A DNA stretch of 31,228 nt. Origin: Candidatus Micrarchaeia archaeon (lineage in GTDB: Archaea > Micrarchaeota > Micrarchaeia > Anstonellales > Bilamarchaeaceae). The position numbers and the translations under genes are program-made. Where the stretch lies: positions 1 to 31,228 of the forward strand of contig JBAYGV010000001.1 in the NCBI GenBank assembly GCA_041666445.1. The letters run 5' to 3'. This document shows positions 14,352 through 24,652 of the stretch, in pieces (positions within the stretch are counted from its first letter, which is position 1; every line of letters starts with the position of its first letter). Under the pieces are notes generated by a model. It was not told the origin of the DNA. It saw only the letters and a list, made by a program, of their open reading frames with translations, and did no database searches.

Positions 14352-14367
14352 GGTCCCGGTGCTTTGC

Positions 14368-15588
14368 ATGGGATTTAATTTTGATATTGAAACAGGACGC
14401 ATTGACCTGACCGCCATAGGTTCTAATGGATACATAGTGAGGAAAAATAGTAAAATCCCCATTCCTTCGGCTGAAATTGAAAACAAGCTGATGGAAGAAT
14501 TCCAAAAAACCAAAGACCCGAAAAAGCTTGAAAAATTCAAGGAAGACCGCCCGAAATTGATGGATGGAGACGCCGTAGTTTGCGGGAAAGACACATCCGT
14601 ATCAATTTACAATAGCTATAACAGGGGAAAGGACAAGCCCGTTGATGATTATAAATTCAGGGCTTCAAAGCGCATTGACCTGACCCCCGGCAGCGAAGTG
14701 AAAGTTAGCGGCATTGAACGGTGGGACAAGACGGATGCAAAAACAAAGGAACGGCATCACGGCGAACTGATAACGGATATAGAACTGAAAAAAGGCTTTT
14801 TTTCCGTGGCCTATTCCCATACGGAAGATGCGCTCGTAACCCCTGTAGCATCAATAAAGTTCCTTTTTGACGGCTCAGGATATTTTGATGTGTACGAAGA
14901 TGCGGTCTACAGCGCCCCCATTGCTTCAACTTCCATTGGCGCGGGCGGAACGGAATACACAAATCGGCTGACCAAAAAATCGTTCGTTGCAAAATCCAGC
15001 ACATTTGAGGAGATAATAATAACTCGGGATGGGATTTACAGGAGAGGATTAACGCAAATGGACGATATTTTCATTAATCCAATACAGCTGTCCATATTCT
15101 TTCAAAACAACATGCGCAAAATGATCCCAACCGGCGCAATTGATGCAAAGGCAATGGCTGAACAATATAAAAACATGCCAAAAACCATGGAGCAGGCGCT
15201 TGGGGGGCTCGAAATGATGAAAAATATGTCGCCTGCAGATTTGGAGCGCATGATGGCGATGGGCGGGCAGAAAATTACTCCTGAAATGGCCGAAAAGATT
15301 AAGGAACTTCCAGAAATGCTCAAGATGATGGAAATGCGGGGCACCACGAAAGAGATGACAAAGGCAATGGCCATGGGCAAGGGAATGATGGAAGGATTTG
15401 GAAGCGAAGGTGCGGAACGGCTTGCAAAGGCGCAGATAAAGGGGCTTGAAATGATGAAGAAACAGGCAGCGCAACCGATGCAGGCCACCACTGCCGATGG
15501 CAAGTCCATAGATGTTGAATCATTTTTCAACTCGCCAAGAAAATACAAGCCGCTGACAAAAGAATCGGGAGCGGTAAAGGTCGCCTAG
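14368..15588 (+). CDS. Hypothetical protein: N-terminal FecR-like beta domain and Met-rich helical C-terminus
   Basis: LMDGDAVVCGKDTSVSI...IDLTPGSEVKV...IELKKGFFSV...VTPVASI fits the FecR pattern. The C-terminal third is very Met-rich (e.g. MMKNMSPADLERMMAM). No signal peptide or TM segment seen. Confidence 0.6.
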   Translation: MGFNFDIETGRIDLTAIGSNGYIVRKNSKIPIPSAEIENKLMEEFQKTKDPKKLEKFKEDRPKLMDGDAVVCGKDTSVSIYNSYNRGKDKPVDDYKFRASKRIDLTPGSEVKVSGIERWDKTDAKTKERHHGELITDIELKKGFFSVAYSHTEDALVTPVASIKFLFDGSGYFDVYEDAVYSAPIASTSIGAGGTEYTNRLTKKSFVAKSSTFEEIIITRDGIYRRGLTQMDDIFINPIQLSIFFQNNMRKMIPTGAIDAKAMAEQYKNMPKTMEQALGGLEMMKNMSPADLERMMAMGGQKITPEMAEKIKELPEMLKMMEMRGTTKEMTKAMAMGKGMMEGFGSEGAERLAKAQIKGLEMMKKQAAQPMQATTADGKSIDVESFFNSPRKYKPLTKESGAVKVA

Positions 15589-15597
15589 TGATTTCTG

Positions 15598-17325
15598 ATG
15601 GCTGGAAAAAAACCTAAAACTGAAAAGAATTCCGTTGGCACCGGCAAGGAAAGCGATGAAGAATTCATGAAGCGAATCATGGGGATGCGGGAAAGCGCAA
15701 CAAAAAAAGTTTCGGAAGAAATAGAATCGTATTCAAAAACGGCAGAAGTTGAAGAAGTGAAAGAGACTGGGAAGCGGGCAGCAAAACAATTGGAAGAAAT
15801 CGAGAAATGCGAAGAGATTGTTGAGGAATTTAAGGCCGATCCGCCAATTGCAATTTCAAAGACGATTAACGGGATATCTACTTCCTATGAATATGACCCG
15901 AAATACAAAACAAAAATAGAATTCCTGAAAAAGCATTATTTTGGATTTTTGTCCGCAACAAAAAGGATATCCATTACTGCGCCAACTTTCAAGGCAATCG
16001 GCAGGGCGTACGTAAGGCGTGGCGGCCAACGGATACTTCTTCCGGAAAGTTCAATCCCGCCCGTAGACAGCATGGGAATGGGAAGCCGGCTCCTAAACCC
16101 TAATGATACAGTTTTTGTATTGGAAAACGGAGACGCAATAGAAACTGAAAACGGATCCTATGTTACCATTAATGATTCCCGTGCAACTATTACTGAATCG
16201 GGTTCAACGAAGGACAAGTATAACTGCGAGATATTTGTCTATCCTAATTCGGAAGTAAAATTGGACTTGATAAAAAAGGAATCGCATCCCGAACCTGCGT
16301 TCATGGTCCCTTCGCAAGTGCCAAATGCAATAAAACGAAATTCTTCGAATACGGTTATAGACTACAATTTTGCTGCGGTTTCATTGGTTAGGGGAATTTT
16401 TCATGTTGGAATCCTAGATGAAAATAAAGAGGTAAACCATTTTTTAAAAATGCCGTCAGGATACCCGGAAATAGAGTTTTTGCATTCTTCGCGGATGGTA
16501 GAAAACATACAGGACAAAATAATGGCAAAAATGCCGGCAAATGTGCTTGCCATGTATAAGAACAGGCTGCCGCCCAAGTCCAAAAAAGTTTGTGATGAAA
16601 TTTCTGCGTTCATTGAACTTTGCCAGAATAATTCCATAGTCATTTTCGGGACTGCAAATTCGGTCAGGAATAGGGGCAGCGGAAAGGTTGCAAGCCCCAA
16701 TGTGCCTAAAGCTGTGCCCGGAGATTACATAATAACTGGAAAAATTACCGTAGTGAATGACAGAATTTACTCCGATGCTTCCGGCTCGATAGACCCGCGA
16801 GCAAGGGCGATAATGAAAAATAAATTAGCCATAGGGCGATACAGTGCGTTGCTGGCTCAAAAAAAGGAATACGAACAAAAGCTCAAGGAAATAAAAGAAA
16901 AGAAATCCAAGCCAGCAGCTCCAGAATCCCCGGCATCGAAGAAAGAAAAGGAAGAACGTAAAGCTGAACTTTTGAAACAGCATGAATATTACAAACAGGT
17001 TGAAGACAAGGACATGGCTGCAGCCGTCCAAATGCAGCTTGATGAGATAGAACCGCCGAAAGAAACCGAAGCGGCAAGGAGAGAAAAGGAAAAAATGAAA
17101 ATTGAACTTTTAAAGAACCAACAACAGGCTAAACAAGCCGGGAATACGGTGATGATTGATACTATTCAAATGCAGCTCGACACATTGGACCAGAAAGAGG
17201 GTGCAACAGAGGAGTACATGGAAAAAATGCTTGCTTGGTGCGATAAAGAGATTGCCAAATTAAAGCCGGACTTAAATTCGAATTTTCCTGGGTATAGCTC
17301 AGTAAGTGCAGAGAATTTGATTTAA
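15598..17325 (+). CDS. Hypothetical protein: charged N-terminus, FecR-like domain and duplicated C-terminal helical hairpin
   Basis: LENGDAIETENGSYVTI...VYPNSEVKL...VSLVRGIFHV. Tandem repeat KEKEERKAELLK...VQMQLDEIE / REKEKMKIELLK...IQMQLDTLD. Confidence 0.6.
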   Translation: MAGKKPKTEKNSVGTGKESDEEFMKRIMGMRESATKKVSEEIESYSKTAEVEEVKETGKRAAKQLEEIEKCEEIVEEFKADPPIAISKTINGISTSYEYDPKYKTKIEFLKKHYFGFLSATKRISITAPTFKAIGRAYVRRGGQRILLPESSIPPVDSMGMGSRLLNPNDTVFVLENGDAIETENGSYVTINDSRATITESGSTKDKYNCEIFVYPNSEVKLDLIKKESHPEPAFMVPSQVPNAIKRNSSNTVIDYNFAAVSLVRGIFHVGILDENKEVNHFLKMPSGYPEIEFLHSSRMVENIQDKIMAKMPANVLAMYKNRLPPKSKKVCDEISAFIELCQNNSIVIFGTANSVRNRGSGKVASPNVPKAVPGDYIITGKITVVNDRIYSDASGSIDPRARAIMKNKLAIGRYSALLAQKKEYEQKLKEIKEKKSKPAAPESPASKKEKEERKAELLKQHEYYKQVEDKDMAAAVQMQLDEIEPPKETEAARREKEKMKIELLKNQQQAKQAGNTVMIDTIQMQLDTLDQKEGATEEYMEKMLAWCDKEIAKLKPDLNSNFPGYSSVSAENLI

Positions 17326-17350: not shown

Positions 17351-18148
17351 TTAATTTTGTATTCCTGCATTGCTGATGTTTGCAGTGCCGTAATACCAAT
17401 CATCAGGATTCAACCAGTTTGCATCCTGAGTTTTTGCAAAATACACTTCTATTATTCCTTCCTGCTCCAATTTCTGCAGTTCAGGATATTCATAAACGTA
17501 AAAAATCCTGTTTTGCCTAGCGCCTTGGACAAAGCACCAGACTTTGACTGATTTTCCTGTTCCCTGTTTTATGAGCCTGGCCATGTCTGCGTAGCGCTGG
17601 GAATATTCGCCCCAAATCGCGTCTGCCTGGCTGAAAGAAATGTTATAGGGGTCAGCGTATTTGACTCCATATATGGTTACGCTTCCATTCACATTGGAAG
17701 AGCGCGCATACCAGACTTCCCGTGCATTCATCATCACATATTCTGGGTATTGCAATGAAGATTGCACGCCTTCATCCCATATCGCCCTTTGTGTTTCGTT
17801 AGGCGGATAGGAATAGCCGTTTATATCGTCGAGCAATCGCACCAGGCTGCCATGGTTCCCTTTCCCTGACCAAAAGCCCATGCTAACCTGCGTTCCACTT
17901 TGGTTCAGGAGAGGCTCGGAAGCAAAAGCTTCAACGAAAAGCCGCATGGTAAAGTTTTCGGATGAAAGTTCTGCAAGCTTTGCATTTGGATCTGAAAAAA
18001 TAATTGAAGTAGAATCCAGATTGCAAGTTGGCGATGAGCCATGGATGCCCGAAAACAGGTAGATGCCGGCAGCTAGCAAAAAGACTGCCAAACAGATTAG
18101 CGCAAGCCCAGTGTATATTTTTTCCAACCGTTTTTCCTTGTTTTTCAT
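17351..18148 (-). CDS. Type II membrane-anchored extracellular protein with ADP-ribosyl cyclase/NAD glycohydrolase-like motifs
   Basis: Start MKNKEK (18148); single N-terminal TM; six N-x-S/T sequons; GFWSG...IWGEYSQRYADMA...VKVWCFVQGARQNRIFYVYEYPEL. The ORF itself is well supported; the fold call is inference. Confidence 0.55.
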   Translation of the reverse strand: MKNKEKRLEKIYTGLALICLAVFLLAAGIYLFSGIHGSSPTCNLDSTSIIFSDPNAKLAELSSENFTMRLFVEAFASEPLLNQSGTQVSMGFWSGKGNHGSLVRLLDDINGYSYPPNETQRAIWDEGVQSSLQYPEYVMMNAREVWYARSSNVNGSVTIYGVKYADPYNISFSQADAIWGEYSQRYADMARLIKQGTGKSVKVWCFVQGARQNRIFYVYEYPELQKLEQEGIIEVYFAKTQDANWLNPDDWYYGTANISNAGIQN

Positions 18149-18222
18149 TTTATCCTGCCCGCATAACAGTAATGACATACTGGGAAAACGCTTTTAATGC
18201 CGAAAGCCAAGCACAGCAATGT

Positions 18223-18259
18223 TTAAGTATGTTGCCGCCGAGCGTTTAACGGGATATAT
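18223..18259 (+). promoter_or_regulatory. Promoter motif copy 2: TTAAGTAT-N7-CCGAGCGTT-TAACGGGAT
   Basis: Matches 14006-14042 at 25 of 37 ungapped positions, with identical spacing to the ATG. Confidence 0.65.
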
Positions 18260-18798
18260 ATGGCAAAAAAAGTTTCCCTTGATGGATTTAGTAAACTAAG
18301 CGGCTGGTTCCTGGCATTAGGTATCCTGTTTGTGATTTTTGGATTTACCCTTATGCTCTCGCCAGTCATGGGAACAATAACGGTTGACCTATTGTTCGGA
18401 GTATTGCTGCTTGTGCTTGGTGTCTCTGAAATAGTATTTGCTTCATGGCGCGCAAGTGGACCGGATTCCTGTTCGTATTATTGAGCGGCATCCTGTCATT
18501 GATAATCGCAGCAGTGCTTATCTTCAACCCGCTAAAGGGTGCGATTGCGCTTACCCTGTTGCTGGGCGCATTCCTCTTCGTGCAGGGCTTGATAAAGTGC
18601 GCACGCTCGATGAAGCTGAAGCCAAATTACCATTGGGAATGGCTGCTTTTCGACGGATTGCTTTCCATATTATTGGGCATATTGATTATGGGGGCATGGC
18701 CAAGCGACTCAGTCTGGGTGCTCGGGCTGCTGTTCGGAATTGACTTGCTATTCGGCGGGCTTTCAATGATAATGATCTCGCAGATGGTAAAGAAGTAG
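18260..18798 (+). pseudogene. hdeD: HdeD/DUF308 acid-resistance membrane protein, split by an apparent single-base deletion near 18442
   Basis: ORF 18260-18484 (WFLALGILFVIFG...P...LLFGVLLLVLGVSEI) and ORF 18445-18798 (LSGILSLIIAAVLIFNP...GAFLFVQG...WLLFDGLLSILLG...WPSDSVWVLGLLFGIDLLFGG) are the two halves of one HdeD. Adding one T (GCT TTC ATG) fuses them. Confidence 0.85.
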
Positions 18799-18913: not shown

Positions 18914-19666
18914 ATGACTCTCCGGGTTTACTGGTCTCCAACACCAGCAAACAGAAAAATAGTTGAAAAGCTTTCTAAAATGCCCCCGCTCAGCAGATGC
19001 GGATTTGAACGGCTTAGCGATGACGAAGGAACCAGAATGGGCGAACTGGAACGGGTAAAAGGAAAGGCAGTATTCCTATGGGGCAGTGGAATGGACCATG
19101 GTGAAAGCTACCATTTTACAAAAGGCACGGGAATACTAGTCAAAGGAAATTACGATGCCCATGAAGATGATAGATGGCCATCGCATCCCTGTGATTCCCA
19201 TATGGCAAGAACTAGGATGGATGGGGTAAAAATAATTGTCATTAAGAAAAGAGGCTCTGCAACTGCAAGAGAGCAATTCCTGACAGAGGTTGAAACGGAA
19301 TGCAAGCCGCTGGGGGAAAATCAAATGGCAGCCACGTTTGATATTGACGGCTTGCCAAGAACTCCGGTGGATGGGTGCCTGGTTTCATATGATGGTTATC
19401 ATCTTTGGAAATGGACAGATTCAATAAAGAGCTTAGGAAACAGGATATATAGATTGGATGCGGGCGGAGTAGTAAGGAATATTCCGGATTTTGATTTTGT
19501 GCATACAGGCGAATTGCCAGAATATGGAGAGGTTGTGAAGTTTGCCTATCTTTATAGAGGAAAAGCACATGATCCGCTTCCGCAACAAACAATCAACCAA
19601 ATTGCTTCCTATGCAACTAACATATATGCGGAACTTATTGGAACATTTGAGAGATTTTGCCAGTAA
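18914..19666 (+). CDS. Divergent ureohydrolase (arginase/agmatinase) superfamily protein
   Basis: Metal-ligand motifs in the expected order: WGSGMDH (GGDH-like), NYDAHED (DAHxD) and ATFDID (DxD). Confidence 0.6.
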   Translation: MTLRVYWSPTPANRKIVEKLSKMPPLSRCGFERLSDDEGTRMGELERVKGKAVFLWGSGMDHGESYHFTKGTGILVKGNYDAHEDDRWPSHPCDSHMARTRMDGVKIIVIKKRGSATAREQFLTEVETECKPLGENQMAATFDIDGLPRTPVDGCLVSYDGYHLWKWTDSIKSLGNRIYRLDAGGVVRNIPDFDFVHTGELPEYGEVVKFAYLYRGKAHDPLPQQTINQIASYATNIYAELIGTFERFCQ

Positions 19667-19713: not shown

Positions 19714-22134
19714 ATGGTTGCCAACAAGAATGCTGCTGATTTTAAGGGAATTTCAATCCAGGAGACCATGAAGGAGCTGGAAACAAGCGAGAAAGGACTG
19801 AATGAAACCGAAGTGCAAAACCGAATCAAGGAATTTGGATTCAACGAAATAATACCAAAGGAAAAGAGCAAGCTGGAGGATTTCCTATCTAGGTTTTGGG
19901 GGCCTATTCCATGGCTTCTTGAAATTGCAGCTTTGCTCTCATGCATGGTCGGGGAAGTATTTGACGGCCTGCTTATTTTCATCCTATTGCTTATGAATAC
20001 CGTAATCGGGTTTGTTGAAGAGCAAAAATCCCACAAGGCACTCGAACTTTTGAAAAAGAAGATGAAGATAAAGGCGCAGGTTTTGCGGGACGGGAAATGG
20101 GTTACTAAAGAGTCGCGGGATTTGGTTCCGGGAGACGTTATTCTTGTAGGGCTAGGCGACCTTGTCCCTGCGGACGTAAAAATAATCAGCGGGAATGTTT
20201 CCGCAGATCAATCTGCATTGAGCGGGGAATCGCTTCCAGTAAACCTGAAAGAAGGCGACCTGACCTATAACGGCGCAATAATAAAACGCGGGGAAGCAAG
20301 GTGCGTTGTAGTAGGAACTGGGAAAAACACTTATTTTGGAAAAACAGTTGAGCTAGTAAACATTGCAAAGCCGAAATCCAGGCAGCAGGCAGTAATGCTC
20401 GACATCTGCAAATACATGATATACCTTGGCGCGATAGTCTACATAATAGTCTTATGGCACGGCATAAACATACACGCGGGAATGCTGACTCTAATGACGT
20501 TTGCAGTCCTTTTCATAGGCGGCGGAGTGCCAGCAGCCCTGCCAGTCATGTTTACCGTATCCCAGGCGACTGGCGCGGGAGAGCTGGCTGAAAAAGGGAT
20601 ACTGGTCACCAGGCTGGACTCGATAGAAAACGCAGCTTCCGTAGAGGTATTGTGCTTAGACAAGACAGGAACGATAACCAAAAATGAACTGGAAGTGAGT
20701 GAAATAATTCCATTTGGAAAATTCAGGAATGAAGATGTTGCGCTTTATGCAGGACTAGCTTCTTCAGAAGGAAGCAAGGATGCGATAGATGCGACTGTGC
20801 TCGGGCACGCAAAGAATGTAATTGGCGACAGGCTAAAGCAATACAAGCAAGTTTCATTCGTTCCGTTCGAGCCTGCAACAAAAAGGACAGAAGCAATTAT
20901 TGAACTGAAGGGAAAGAAAATCAAAGTAATGAAAGGGGCGCCGCAGGTCCTTATTGCTCTTTGCAAAAAAACAGACAAGAAAACGATTGCACAGGCAAAC
21001 AAGCAGATAGATGGCCTTTCGCTTAAAGGGTGCAGGGCGCTTGCAGTTGCAAAATCAATCGATGCGAAAATGAATGAATTTGAACTTGTTGGGATTCTGG
21101 CACTGGCAGACCCGATAAGGCCGGATACTTCAGCAATGATAAACGACATGAGAAACGCGGGTATCCGTCCGATGATGATAACTGGGGACAATATCGCAGT
21201 TGCAAAGGAAATTGCAAAACAAGCAAATATAGGAAACGCAATTGCAAGGATAAGCGAGCTCAAGGCAATGGGCGAAGAAAGGATGAAGGAAGCGATAGAA
21301 AAATTGAATGGCATTGCGGAAATTTACCCTGAAGACAAATTTTCTATAGTGAAATTATGGCAGTCCCGAGGAATGATGGTTGGGATGACAGGCGATGGAG
21401 TAAATGATGCTCCGGCATTGAAGCAAGCGGAAATGGGAGTTGCAGTCAGCAATTCTACCGATGTCGCAAAAGCGGCCGCAAGCATTGTGCTTACCGAACC
21501 CGGGACAAGGCTGATAATAGATGCAGTGAAAACAAGCAGGCAGATTTACCAGAGGATGCTAACTTGGGCAATAAACAAAATAACTAAATCAATCCAGTTC
21601 TTAGGTATAACGACCATAGGGTTCTTCTGGTTTGAAAGCATAGTAATTTCGATAACCGGCCTGATGCTCATAGTGTTCGTGAATGATTTCCTTACGCTTG
21701 CGCTTGCAAAGGATAACGCAACATCGACTTCCAACCCTAACAAGTGGAATGTGAAGAACCTTTCCATCGCATCCGGCTTCCTTGGCGTGCTATTCGTGCT
21801 TGAAGGAGTTGTGCTCATGTGGATTGGAAGGGATTATTTCCACCTTACGCTGGAGGGAATCCAAACCTTAATTCTTTTGCTATTCGCATATACGACGATG
21901 TTCAGGATACTAATAGTACGGGAAAGGGGCCACTGCTGGGATTCAATGCCAAGCAAGACAGTGATTTTGACCACTGTAATTACGGTGGTTTTCTTCACAT
22001 GGATTTCTATAGATGGGGTGTTATTGAAAGGGCTGCCAGCGAACATGGTGCTGTTTGCGCTTGGATTCTGCGCTGTTGCAACGTTCCTGATAGACATTCC
22101 GAAATATTATGTTTTCAGGAGATTGGGGCTGTAG
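19714..22134 (+). CDS. Plasma-membrane-type proton-efflux P-type ATPase (P3A)
   Basis: DQSALSGESLPV, GVPAALP, CLDKTGTIT, KGAPQ, DPIRPD, TGDN, GMTGDGVNDAPALK, and TM6 FVNDFLTLALAKDN carrying the protonatable Asp of P3A pumps. Confidence 0.92.
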   Translation: MVANKNAADFKGISIQETMKELETSEKGLNETEVQNRIKEFGFNEIIPKEKSKLEDFLSRFWGPIPWLLEIAALLSCMVGEVFDGLLIFILLLMNTVIGFVEEQKSHKALELLKKKMKIKAQVLRDGKWVTKESRDLVPGDVILVGLGDLVPADVKIISGNVSADQSALSGESLPVNLKEGDLTYNGAIIKRGEARCVVVGTGKNTYFGKTVELVNIAKPKSRQQAVMLDICKYMIYLGAIVYIIVLWHGINIHAGMLTLMTFAVLFIGGGVPAALPVMFTVSQATGAGELAEKGILVTRLDSIENAASVEVLCLDKTGTITKNELEVSEIIPFGKFRNEDVALYAGLASSEGSKDAIDATVLGHAKNVIGDRLKQYKQVSFVPFEPATKRTEAIIELKGKKIKVMKGAPQVLIALCKKTDKKTIAQANKQIDGLSLKGCRALAVAKSIDAKMNEFELVGILALADPIRPDTSAMINDMRNAGIRPMMITGDNIAVAKEIAKQANIGNAIARISELKAMGEERMKEAIEKLNGIAEIYPEDKFSIVKLWQSRGMMVGMTGDGVNDAPALKQAEMGVAVSNSTDVAKAAASIVLTEPGTRLIIDAVKTSRQIYQRMLTWAINKITKSIQFLGITTIGFFWFESIVISITGLMLIVFVNDFLTLALAKDNATSTSNPNKWNVKNLSIASGFLGVLFVLEGVVLMWIGRDYFHLTLEGIQTLILLLFAYTTMFRILIVRERGHCWDSMPSKTVILTTVITVVFFTWISIDGVLLKGLPANMVLFALGFCAVATFLIDIPKYYVFRRLGL

Positions 22135-22150
22135 AAACTGAAGGTGCGCA

Positions 22151-23554
22151 TCAGCGATTTGCTGGAACCCAGTTCTTCCTGAATTTATATATCGCCAGCG
22201 GCAGCCCTCCAATCAGCAAAATTGAAACGAAGAGAACGGCTTCATAGGCAAAAACCATTTCCTTCGGGAGCCCGGCTGGCGGGAAAAATCCCACAATGAA
22301 GCCTGCAAGGGTTGAAACAAACCCGACCCCGGCCACAAGCCAAACACCTAGCTTGCCACCGGGAATTGAAAACGCCCGCTTGGCATTTGGCTGGGAGTAG
22401 CGCAGTTTTATCGCTGCTGCAAAAAGAAGCAAATACATGATGAGGTAAAGGTGGGTATAAAGGTCGGTAAGGAACCAGTAGAAGAGCTCGGTTGACCTGA
22501 AGACAAGGAATAGGAGGGCAACCAACGTAACTGCAATTCCCTGGACAAAAAGGATATTTGACTGCACCCCATTCTCATTCTGGTAGCTGAAAAACTTCGG
22601 AAGATTCCCGTTTTTTGCTGCAATCAACAGCCCCTTGCTCGGGCCGGAAATCCATGAAACAACCTGCCCGACAAGCCCAAGGCAAATCATTGATGCGATT
22701 ACTGGAACAAGCCCAGTCCTGCTAAACGCAGAGAGAAACCCTTTTGCGGCCTCCATCAATCCAGTCATCAGGTTAAGCTGGGAAGAAGGGACAAGAATTG
22801 CAATTGAAAGCGTGCCAAGCGAAAAGAATACAAATGCCAAAATCGCGGAGATAAATATTGCTTTCGGATAATCCTTTGCCGGATTCCTAAGGTTCATTGC
22901 ACGCACGGCATGTACTTCCATGCCTGAATAGGAAGAAAAGACACCGATTGCAAATGCAATGCTGCCAATGCCAGTAAACGTTGGGATTATGGCGGACAGG
23001 TCCAAACTGGCATAGGACGGCTGGCCAAGCCTAAGCCAGTCAAGGGCAAAGAAGATGACTAAGAATGCTGGGAGCATTACCCCGACAACAGTGAGGACGG
23101 ATGTCAAATTCTTGGCAAGTTCAAAGCCCCGCAGGTTCACAACTGTCGCAATCCAATAGACCGAAATTATTACGGTCGGAATAAACCACGGGCTGCTGGT
23201 AATAGACGGGCTTACGAATATGAATGAAAAGGTTGCTGCAAAAAATGAAAGCGCAATGGGATACCATAGTATGTTTGGCGCCCATTGGAGCCACACAGTA
23301 AGGAAGCCGAATTTTTCCCCGAACGCTTCCTTTGCCCACCCATATACCCCGCCGCTTTTAGGCCAGCCGGTGGCAAGCTCTGCGCAAACCAAAGAGATAG
23401 GGATAAGAAAACAAACGGCTGCGATGGCGTAGAAGAATATGGATGAAATCCCGTAGCTTGCAAGCAGCGGGAGCCCCCTAAGACCAACGACTACTGAAAA
23501 ATTGAGCAGGACAAGCGAAAGAACGCCCAGTTCCTTGATTTTTTTTGGGACCAT
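22151..23554 (-). CDS. APC-superfamily amino acid permease (GadC-like), paralogue of 5265-6731
   Basis: GLRGLP, AELATGWPKSGGVYGWAKEAFG, GMEVHAV, WISGPSKGL, KLRYSQP...FSIPGGKLG. Confidence 0.9.
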   Translation of the reverse strand: MVPKKIKELGVLSLVLLNFSVVVGLRGLPLLASYGISSIFFYAIAAVCFLIPISLVCAELATGWPKSGGVYGWAKEAFGEKFGFLTVWLQWAPNILWYPIALSFFAATFSFIFVSPSITSSPWFIPTVIISVYWIATVVNLRGFELAKNLTSVLTVVGVMLPAFLVIFFALDWLRLGQPSYASLDLSAIIPTFTGIGSIAFAIGVFSSYSGMEVHAVRAMNLRNPAKDYPKAIFISAILAFVFFSLGTLSIAILVPSSQLNLMTGLMEAAKGFLSAFSRTGLVPVIASMICLGLVGQVVSWISGPSKGLLIAAKNGNLPKFFSYQNENGVQSNILFVQGIAVTLVALLFLVFRSTELFYWFLTDLYTHLYLIMYLLLFAAAIKLRYSQPNAKRAFSIPGGKLGVWLVAGVGFVSTLAGFIVGFFPPAGLPKEMVFAYEAVLFVSILLIGGLPLAIYKFRKNWVPANR

Positions 23555-23605
23555 AGTTTTCTTTCCAGAAGTTAAGCTTATATGTTTAATCGGTCCAGTA
23601 GGAAT

Positions 23606-24652
23606 ATGGCCGTTCCAAAAAATAATGATGCAGAAAACGGGAAGGAAAAAAAAACCCGCACCATACTCGCAGGAGTTTTAGTATTGGCAATGCTTTACCT
23701 TGTTTTAACCGCATTGTTTGGCTATTTCAACGCATTTTTTGTCGCCATATTCTCCTATATCTTCCTTAAGCCAGTCTATTCATTTATCCGAAAGCATGGG
23801 CTCGGAAAAACTTCTTCGGCCCTGCTTTCAATGACAATGGGAATACTCGTAGTTGGAATACCGGCAATTATTTTTTTCCAAATACTTATTTCTGAAACTT
23901 CAAGCCTGATAAGCCCGGCTTCTGAACAATATTACATGACAATAATAAATCAAAACCTGGCCACACTAAAAAATACATTCCCGGGAATTGAAATAAGCGA
24001 TGCGCTTAAAAATGGAATAACCAGCCTTGCATTCCAGGCGGTTGGCGGGTTTAAAGACCTAATTCTCACTTCTATTCAAAGCATCGGGGAGCTCGCCCTT
24101 CAAAGCTTGGTGGCGATATTTGTCATATATTACCTTCTTGTAAACGAGGATAACGTTGGCAAGCTTGGAAGAAAACTTATTCCGTTCAACCAGAAGAATA
24201 CGGATAAATTGATAGACGAATCCAACCGGGTGACCTATTCCGTCCTTATGTCCATGGGAGTGATGGGAGTCGTCCAAGCATTGCCTCTTACGCTCGTTTT
24301 CATGTATTTTGGGGTTCCGGGGGCAGTATTCTGGGGATTCATGGCATTAATCCTTACATTCATCCCGTTTGTCGGGATTCCAGTCGTATGGATTCCTATT
24401 GCGCTCGGAGAATGGCTGGGGCACAATGAATCGGCAGCAATAGGAATAGCCATAATGGGAATAATCTTGGCAGTGGTGGAAAACTGGAGGCCGATAATGC
24501 AAAAGTACCTGGGCCAGGTCCATCCACTGGTAGCACTTCTTGGGGTTGTAATTGGAATAGCAAAATTTGGGATTTTAGGCGTGCTCATAGGCCCGCTTCT
24601 CCTAAGCTATACCTTGCTTGCGGTTGGCATGTTCAAGGAAGAATACCTATAG
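23606..24652 (+). CDS. AI-2E (UPF0118/PerM) family transporter
   Basis: YIFLKPVY, YYLLVNED, LTFIPFVG...VWIP, VENW-RP, VHPLVALLGVVIGIAKFGILGVLIGPLL. Start placed at MAVPKN. Confidence 0.88.
   Translation: MAVPKNNDAENGKEKKTRTILAGVLVLAMLYLVLTALFGYFNAFFVAIFSYIFLKPVYSFIRKHGLGKTSSALLSMTMGILVVGIPAIIFFQILISETSSLISPASEQYYMTIINQNLATLKNTFPGIEISDALKNGITSLAFQAVGGFKDLILTSIQSIGELALQSLVAIFVIYYLLVNEDNVGKLGRKLIPFNQKNTDKLIDESNRVTYSVLMSMGVMGVVQALPLTLVFMYFGVPGAVFWGFMALILTFIPFVGIPVVWIPIALGEWLGHNESAAIGIAIMGIILAVVENWRPIMQKYLGQVHPLVALLGVVIGIAKFGILGVLIGPLLLSYTLLAVGMFKEEYL

Follow-up and report, generated by a model that had tools for sequence, protein, structure and literature searches.

The window analysed here is a 31,228-nucleotide stretch (positions 1 to 31,228, forward strand) of contig JBAYGV010000001.1 from the Candidatus Micrarchaeia archaeon assembly GCA_041666445.1. 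On its minus strand lies a gene for a 265-residue protein that we assign, with a probability of roughly 0.6, as a surface-anchored, predicted glycohydrolase of nicotinamide adenine dinucleotide or its phosphate (NAD(P)+), with the ADP-ribosyl-cyclase (ARC; CD38-like) fold. Fold, conservation, motif register and topology were computed here; substrate, chemistry and role are what we infer. The sequence-only reading had proposed a CD38-like ecto-NADase at this position, and the results below support that interpretation. The gene and the parts of its product are as follows (residues counted from the second ATG; TM, transmembrane).

17351..18148 (minus): coding sequence, 265 residues from the second ATG (MKNKEKR), with the TAA stop at 17351-17353
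18053..18109 (minus): predicted signal-anchor TM helix, residues ~14-32, placed by the hydropathy maximum (residues 11-33), an AlphaFold2 helix at residues 2-33 and a lipobox at the equivalent position in bacterial homologues
17375..18007 (minus): extracytoplasmic domain with the predicted ADP-ribosyl-cyclase (CD38-like) fold, residues ~48-258
17864..17878 (minus): GFWSG (W93, S94), residues 91-95; counterpart of CD38 W125/S126 and of ARC-toxin (Y/F)WSG, by hhalign, conservation and, in an orthologue, contact with the predicted inhibitor tail
17768..17782 (minus): IWDEG (D125/E126), residues 123-127; candidate counterpart, as we infer, of CD38 E146, RDTND D2107 and toxin TLEMTL
17579..17617 (minus): IWGEYSQRYADMA (W179, S183), residues 178-190; counterpart of CD38 W189/S193 and Aplysia W140/S144, by invariance and alignment register
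17477..17506 (minus): IFYVYEYPEL (E220, P222, L224), residues 215-224; E220 is the counterpart of CD38 E226, Aplysia E179 and ARCtox E356, by hmmsearch, hhalign and invariance

Predicted fold, catalytic residues and topology

To AlphaFold2 the full-length protein is a confident structure (pLDDT 90.9 in the predicted local distance difference test), and a domain-only model built with 50 diverse sequences reaches a pLDDT of 95.5 and a predicted template-modelling score (pTM) of 0.91. When these models were compared with five structure libraries, the best or near-best matches were ADP-ribosyl-cyclase-fold NADases, the fold that the sequence-only reading had expected. By Foldseek's own ranking the top seven matches in the PDB are chains of the Vibrio vulnificus toxin domain RDTND (E 5e-4 to 3e-2), while the top three Swiss-Prot AlphaFold models are the Aplysia kurodai cyclase, human CD38 and mouse BST1. 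A shape search of the ESM Atlas matched a cluster with PF02267 in 45% of its members (template-modelling score 0.73, by hit); the language-model feature search of the Atlas scored below 0.9 and is therefore treated as a lead only. The nearest structures are all NAD(P)ases, and the models predict an ADP-ribosyl-cyclase (CD38-like) fold for this protein.

The motifs GFWSG, IWGEYSQRYADMA and IFYVYEYPEL, quoted by the sequence-only reading, are all present in the open reading frame (ORF). In the family the order is GFWSG, IWDEG, IWGEYSQRYADMA and YEYPEL (residues 219-224), which is the order of the ARC signature in reference toxins: (Y/F)WSG, TLEMTL, (F/L)W-x2-AS-x2-(Y/F)A and (V/T)E(I/Y)P-x-L. 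In CD38 the catalytic residue is Glu226; the balance of hydrolase and cyclase activity is tuned by Glu146, Trp189 stacks on the base, and a hydrogen bond to the ribose can come from Ser193 (PMC5700923). Residues W2082, D2107 and E2186 of RDTND superpose on CD38 W125, E146 and E226 (PMC11266601); W273, E299, W323 and E356 are each essential in the Pantoea toxin ARCtox (PMC12605009); and the conserved residues of Tox-ARC domains according to Zhang et al. are [ST][DE], S and E (PMC3482391). Many positions are invariant among 40 close homologues. Among the most divergent representatives (23 to 50 sequences, 30-52% identity), invariance in the ectodomain is confined to N98, which follows GFWSG, and to W179, S183, E220 and L224; residues S94, G127, P135, R149, G180, Y186, T197, A210 and P222 are at least 90% conserved. 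The conservation that a CD38-like active site calls for is thus seen where it was predicted, since W179, S183 and E220 are invariant in the 23 most divergent cluster representatives and the W93 position is always aromatic (Trp in most members, Tyr or Phe in a few distant ones).

The CD38-parallel register, which had been aligned by eye, was reproduced by hmmsearch on the Aplysia cyclase and by hhalign on both halves of the ARC toxins, above shuffled controls. When a diverse domain profile (A6) was searched against 177,635 PDB sequences, the Aplysia cyclase came first (E 0.13) and RDTND next (E 0.5). Here W179, S183 and E220 fall on W140, S144 and E179 of Aplysia, and the family's YElPeL falls on Aplysia YELPNL at chain residue 179, the residue mutated in PDB entry 1r0s ("Glu179Ala mutant"). 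No cyclase was found among the same PDB sequences by phmmer with the protein itself or by hmmsearch with a less diverse full-length profile; only the diverse domain-only profile found one. An hhalign comparison of 62 family members with six ARC toxins aligned the W/S/E register with a score of 22.4 (P 0.01); 200 column shuffles gave 13.1 +/- 2.5 and peaked at 20.1, short of the observed value in every case. Against the divergent toxin of locus L042 alone, P was 0.0047 (35% identity over 48 columns), and the N-terminal halves alone aligned GFWSG on YWSGR with a score of 20.6 (P 0.002), which 1 of 150 shuffles reached. The low-diversity toxin alignment A3 gave a weak match (P 0.03-0.14), and the global mode of hhalign returned a meaningless alignment. 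Each of these sequence statistics is weak alone; together, given that the fold was picked independently by structure, they are convincing.

The toxin sequences were obtained from genome searches. A PF02267 search of five family-carrying bacterial genomes and 401 Actinomycetota genomes gave, as one weak match, locus L040, whose translation matches 9ro8 (E 7.6e-18), 9ouf (E 6.9e-21) and, weakly, bovine CD38; the full mycobacterial ARC domains of alignment A3 were obtained from this seed. A search with the ARC-toxin alignment through 401 Actinomycetota and 401 Pseudomonadota genomes then yielded one divergent toxin (L042) and nothing further. L040:1405-1698, from a Mycobacterium lacus-like genome, is the orphaned C-terminal half of an ARC toxin domain, detached from the N-terminal one; a longer profile match, extending upstream of it, includes a single in-frame TAG. 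In L042:1-871, the C-terminus of a divergent ARC toxin is encoded ahead of an Imm74 immunity gene.

The protein is predicted to have a type II topology (N-in/C-out). The basic, K/R-rich N-terminus (MKNKEKRLEK) precedes the only strongly hydrophobic stretch, at residues ~13-33, which AlphaFold2 models as one long helix, and the single-pass type II anchor proposed from the sequence is borne out to this extent. The compact alpha/beta ectodomain of ~215 residues is enlarged over the minimal toxin domain by two helices and a beta-hairpin inserted at residues ~128-170. It was also described as rich in sequons, which is modestly so: it has six N-x-S/T sites, compared with 2.3 +/- 1.3 in composition shuffles (P about 0.013). 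Sequons number 3-10 per homologue in DPANN members and 0-2 in bacterial ones. Of the three Cys in the whole protein, only C205, in a buried strand, is conserved.

We propose that the basic N-terminus and the single hydrophobic helix would insert the protein as a type II membrane protein, with the ~215-residue domain facing outward and its sequons probably N-glycosylated. If CD38, the Aplysia cyclase and the Pantoea ARC toxin are a guide, the NAD(P)+ site would be the cleft that the helical cap forms with the four-stranded parallel sheet, where W179 and W93 may stack on the nicotinamide and purine rings and S94 and S183 may contact the diphosphate and ribose. E220 would hold the 2'- and 3'-hydroxyls of the ribose and stabilise an oxocarbenium-like intermediate while nicotinamide leaves; water would then yield ADP-ribose, possibly with a minor cyclic product. 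The most likely role in this small-genome, DPANN-type archaeon would be conversion of extracellular or partner-derived NAD(P) to nicotinamide and ADP-ribose, for salvage or for depriving neighbours.

Family distribution and a small partner gene in relatives

Scans of the protein against Pfam and NCBIfam matched no model, even at E <= 10, and a Pfam scan of 40 homologues gave only noise, with no PF02267 match at E <= 10. In a collection of 5.8 billion proteins, more than 150 clusters match at E <= 1e-65 with 45-67% identity, and an exhaustive HMMER scan of 1.84 billion representatives found 68 family clusters. All named sources are metagenome-assembled genomes from anoxic freshwater, peat or groundwater. 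The archaeal sources include Burarchaeum, Micrarchaeota, Woesearchaeota, Altiarchaeota and many Methanoregula/Methanomicrobiales, and the bacterial ones include Geothermincolia and other Actinomycetota, Margulisiibacteriota, and Bdellovibrio and other Proteobacteria. The sequence-only reading had presented the protein as an archaeal CD38-like enzyme; archaeal members are indeed present, but the family is not archaeal only, because lipoprotein forms are common in bacteria. Where archaeal proteins begin with a TM helix, bacterial ones have a lipobox (L-x-x-C), and the domain is therefore taken to be extracytoplasmic throughout the family. The window protein is 52-57% identical to the lipoprotein forms and 46-49% identical to the Methanoregula forms.

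The family gene was found in none of 40 related genomes of 0.8-1.6 Mb, of which 24 come from the archaeon's own family and 16 from its order; it is therefore a patchy accessory gene, probably acquired horizontally. No known fused domain was found in longer homologues. Across 39 homologous loci we found no conserved operon apart from the small partner gene described next, and neighbours otherwise common to several loci are explained by synteny between closely related genomes. In two Methanoregula loci (L027:4051-5732 and L029:3434-5364) the family gene is present in tandem full-length copies.

In Methanomicrobiales and some bacteria, an unannotated ORF of 110-124 residues lies directly 3' of the family gene, often with overlapping stop and start codons.

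Partner gene examples: L001:6832-7188 (plus), L012:3295-3624, L016:5810-6166, L017:5775-6131, L020:5846-6217, and others

Clustering of the locus ORFs places this partner in 20 of the 39 homologous loci; it is not detectable in the window genome or in the other DPANN loci. The partner ORF is without a signal peptide, ends in AF-x-x-G-(M/L)(M/L)-W-T-A-F and matches no Pfam or NCBIfam family. Complex prediction for a Methanomicrobiales enzyme and its partner gave an interaction prediction score from aligned errors (ipSAE) of 0.86 (runs 0.87, 0.85 and 0.86), compared with 0.24 for the best control, with a partner pLDDT of at least 83 and at least 95% of contacts shared between runs. The ipSAE mark is reached by 58 of 80 solved complexes and by 2 of 110 mismatched pairs, counts that hold only roughly here because our own alignments were used for the complex prediction. 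On the enzyme, the predicted interface includes the FWSGK loop, the WDEG Glu, the IWGxYS Trp and the loop that precedes the catalytic Glu. In the predicted complex, the C-terminal Phe of the partner touches W100, S101 and W186 of the orthologue, which correspond to W93, S94 and W179 here; since both Trp touch the same Phe in the orthologue, they would line one pocket.

The partner's C-terminal tail is therefore predicted to plug the enzyme cleft, much as ARCimm blocks ARCtox (PMC12605009), and this arrangement suggests that the enzyme may be a danger in the cytoplasm, as expected of one that consumes NAD. In some bacterial lipoprotein members the C-terminal half of the partner is fused to the C-terminus of the enzyme (P0123:240-318, P0125:235-312 and L031:1887-2867), and P0023 and P0039 carry a short tail ending in W-D-(D/E)-F. 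The fused tails suggest a built-in autoinhibitory plug outside the cell, which is hard to square with a purely cytoplasmic immunity role.

Alternative readings and known systems

The soft spot of the register is the second motif. D125 and E126 are present in at least 90% of close homologues, but this acidic position is not invariant, both being replaced in several distant members; the match of IWDEG to TLEMTL is our own and no tool aligned it. The same fold and catalytic Glu could act on a different N-ribosyl substrate, such as nicotinamide mononucleotide, nicotinamide riboside, cyclic ADP-ribose (cADPR)-type molecules or other extracellular nucleotides, and the protein would then be a scavenging N-glycosidase. 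We regard this as unlikely, since the invariant positions are the ones that in CD38-type enzymes touch the nicotinamide ribose, the closest structures are NAD(P)ases without exception, and a cleft-plugging partner in relatives is more sensible if the substrate is essential in the cytoplasm, like NAD. That the Aplysia cyclase is the best sequence-level match in the PDB, and that eukaryotic members of the fold make cADPR as well as NAADP, nicotinic acid adenine dinucleotide phosphate (PMC3482391), could instead point to a signalling nucleotide as the main product, whether cADPR, an isomer or, by base exchange, NAADP, released as a diffusible signal at the cell surface. This seems quite improbable to us: the closest relatives by structure are hydrolases, ARCtox is reported to make no cADPR (PMC12605009), RDTND yields 0.31% cADPR (PMC11266601), no receptor or effector gene is linked to the family gene in the 39 loci, and an extracellular signal would lack an evident receiver.

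DPANN archaea live attached to hosts, and a surface-displayed effector directed against a host or competitor would suit such a life; the partner in relatives would then be a true immunity protein that was lost or never needed here. Every prokaryotic ARC domain characterised so far is a toxin that comes with an immunity protein, and both the predicted cleft-plugging partner and the patchy, transfer-like distribution (0 of 40 relatives) fit this explanation. We nevertheless consider it fairly improbable, because the protein has a membrane anchor or lipobox only and no trafficking, PAAR, RHS, LXG or translocation module, the polymorphic C-terminal cassette arrangement is lacking, sequence conservation is high, at 45-67% identity across domains of life, unlike that of fast-evolving toxins, and the partner is missing in about half of the 39 loci. 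A non-catalytic binding or structural surface protein that merely retains the fold would agree with the lack of any matching family model; it is very improbable, given that the strictly invariant residues are a catalytic-type Glu, Ser and Trp and not core hydrophobics, and that the partner is predicted to occlude exactly the catalytic cleft. Within the glycohydrolase assignment, scavenging, deprivation and antagonism are candidate roles. Gene neighbourhoods in the window and in the homologous loci indicate no pathway. The genome (1.02 Mb, 71% complete) contains isochorismatase-family genes, possibly for a nicotinamidase, and a cytidylyltransferase-like gene, with weak matches to NAD synthase; nicotinate phosphoribosyltransferase (NAPRTase) and quinolinate phosphoribosyltransferase (QRPTase) were not found, which at this completeness decides nothing.

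The closest known system is that of the bacterial ARC toxins (Tox-ARC; Zhang et al. 2012; Martinkus et al. 2025), which have the ARC domain C-terminal in a protein with a trafficking module such as PAAR, RHS, LXG or TPS, represented by Pantoea ananatis PANA_2924 ARCtox (9ro8) and the Streptococcus parasanguinis protein (9ouf). In contrast to these, the family protein stands alone behind its anchor or lipobox instead of forming the C-terminal cassette of a PAAR, RHS, LXG or contact-dependent inhibition (CDI) protein; it carries an insert of ~80 residues and its own invariant N98; and the family is found in archaea and is far more conserved. No Imm74 or Imm63 gene is among the window neighbours of the gene (a convergent unknown gene and divergent DUF308 genes), whereas the genuine toxin locus L042 has Imm74. 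The window protein shares the ectoenzyme topology of CD38, which with CD157/BST1 and the Aplysia cyclase belongs to the eukaryotic ADP-ribosyl cyclases (PF02267, Rib_hydrolayse). It differs from these eukaryotic cyclases in that it fails the PF02267 sequence test (no match at E <= 10) and is without their 5-6 conserved disulfides (having three Cys only) and their C-terminal extension, and the TLEDTL signature is replaced by IWDEG. RDTND of the V. vulnificus MARTX toxin (formerly DUF1; 8k9z/8ka0-2) sits as an internal effector within a giant toxin and becomes active only once RID and host calmodulin have remodelled it (PMC11266601), and nothing similar is encoded here.

In two further systems, Streptococcus pyogenes SPN with IFS and Mycobacterium tuberculosis TNT with IFT, an exported NAD-destroying enzyme is encoded beside a small cytoplasmic blocker of its active site, a logic that matches the prediction for the Methanoregula-type loci. 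The catalytic folds of SPN and TNT are unrelated to that of the family, and both enzymes are delivered into host cells, whereas the window protein stays anchored and its genome has no detectable partner gene.

To our knowledge, CD38-type enzymes are known as signalling or NAD-consuming ectoenzymes of animals and fungi, and in bacteria only as the warheads of polymorphic toxins. A full-text literature search found no paper on an archaeal or lipoprotein-type CD38 homologue. Archaeal ARC domains are absent from the lists of two published ARC surveys (including that of Zhang et al., PMC3482391), and published accounts describe bacterial ARC domains as fused exclusively to secretion-targeting modules. 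Our results therefore support a new branch of the ADP-ribosyl-cyclase fold that is stand-alone and anchored, is not a toxin module and has a new inhibitor-like partner in relatives. What is new is a well-conserved family, so far without a Pfam or NCBIfam model, that shares predicted fold and catalytic residues with CD38-type enzymes; its archaeal occurrence as a stand-alone, surface-anchored protein instead of a delivered toxin; and, in relatives, a small protein that is expected from modelling to sit as a plug in the active site. Should the activity be confirmed, microbes of anoxic groundwater and peat would gain a route to process extracellular NAD(P), which could matter for auxotrophic, host-dependent DPANN cells; the family would bear on the origin of eukaryotic CD38, and enzyme and inhibitor together would offer biochemistry a compact new NADase-inhibitor pair. 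Tentatively, one could go further and see here an unrecognised, ancient non-toxin CD38-like lineage: stand-alone ecto-NAD(P)ases, anchored in the membrane or by lipid, that anaerobic archaea and bacteria have together with a plug-type inhibitor of their own. Host-attached DPANN cells might use them to harvest or deplete the NAD of their partners, and the type II layout might make the lineage a better prokaryotic model than the polymorphic toxins proposed so far for how animal CD38/CD157 arose.

Start site and surroundings of the gene

Counted from its first ATG, the ORF spans 17351-18178 on the minus strand and encodes 275 residues. The in-frame ATG at 18178, which would add 10 residues, is probably not used as a start; we favour the second ATG (18148) because the resulting N-terminus fits that of the closest homologue (P0002, MKNDKKR) and because an AGGA lies 5-8 nucleotides upstream. 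We take the gene to be real on the strength of more than 150 homologues at E <= 1e-65 and of the conserved motif residues. It is monocistronic; the convergent gene ends at 17325 and the divergent DUF308 genes begin at 18260.

18149..18259 (no strand): divergent intergenic region common to this gene and the DUF308 gene, from sequence reading

Within this region an A/T-rich, TATA-like ATTAAAAG occurs on the minus strand at 18191-18198, ~45 nucleotides upstream of the ATG at 18148, and ATTAAAAG and the AGGA may serve as candidate promoter and start signals of the CD38-like gene.

The overlapping ORFs at 18260-18484 and 18445-18798 (plus), in different frames and of 74 and 117 residues, both match DUF308 (HdeD-like). 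Together they have about the length of one gene, which points to a frameshift: the gene could be a genuine pseudogene, or the assembly could be wrong here. The ORFs at 14359-15588, 15598-17325 and 18914-19666 (plus; 409, 575 and 250 residues) are without a Pfam match at E <= 0.01. The block at 19714-24652, with a P-type ATPase, an amino-acid permease and an AI-2E transporter, is syntenic with L005:998-5902, the locus of the closest homologue (64% identity), so that this transporter block is common to at least one other uncultured lineage.
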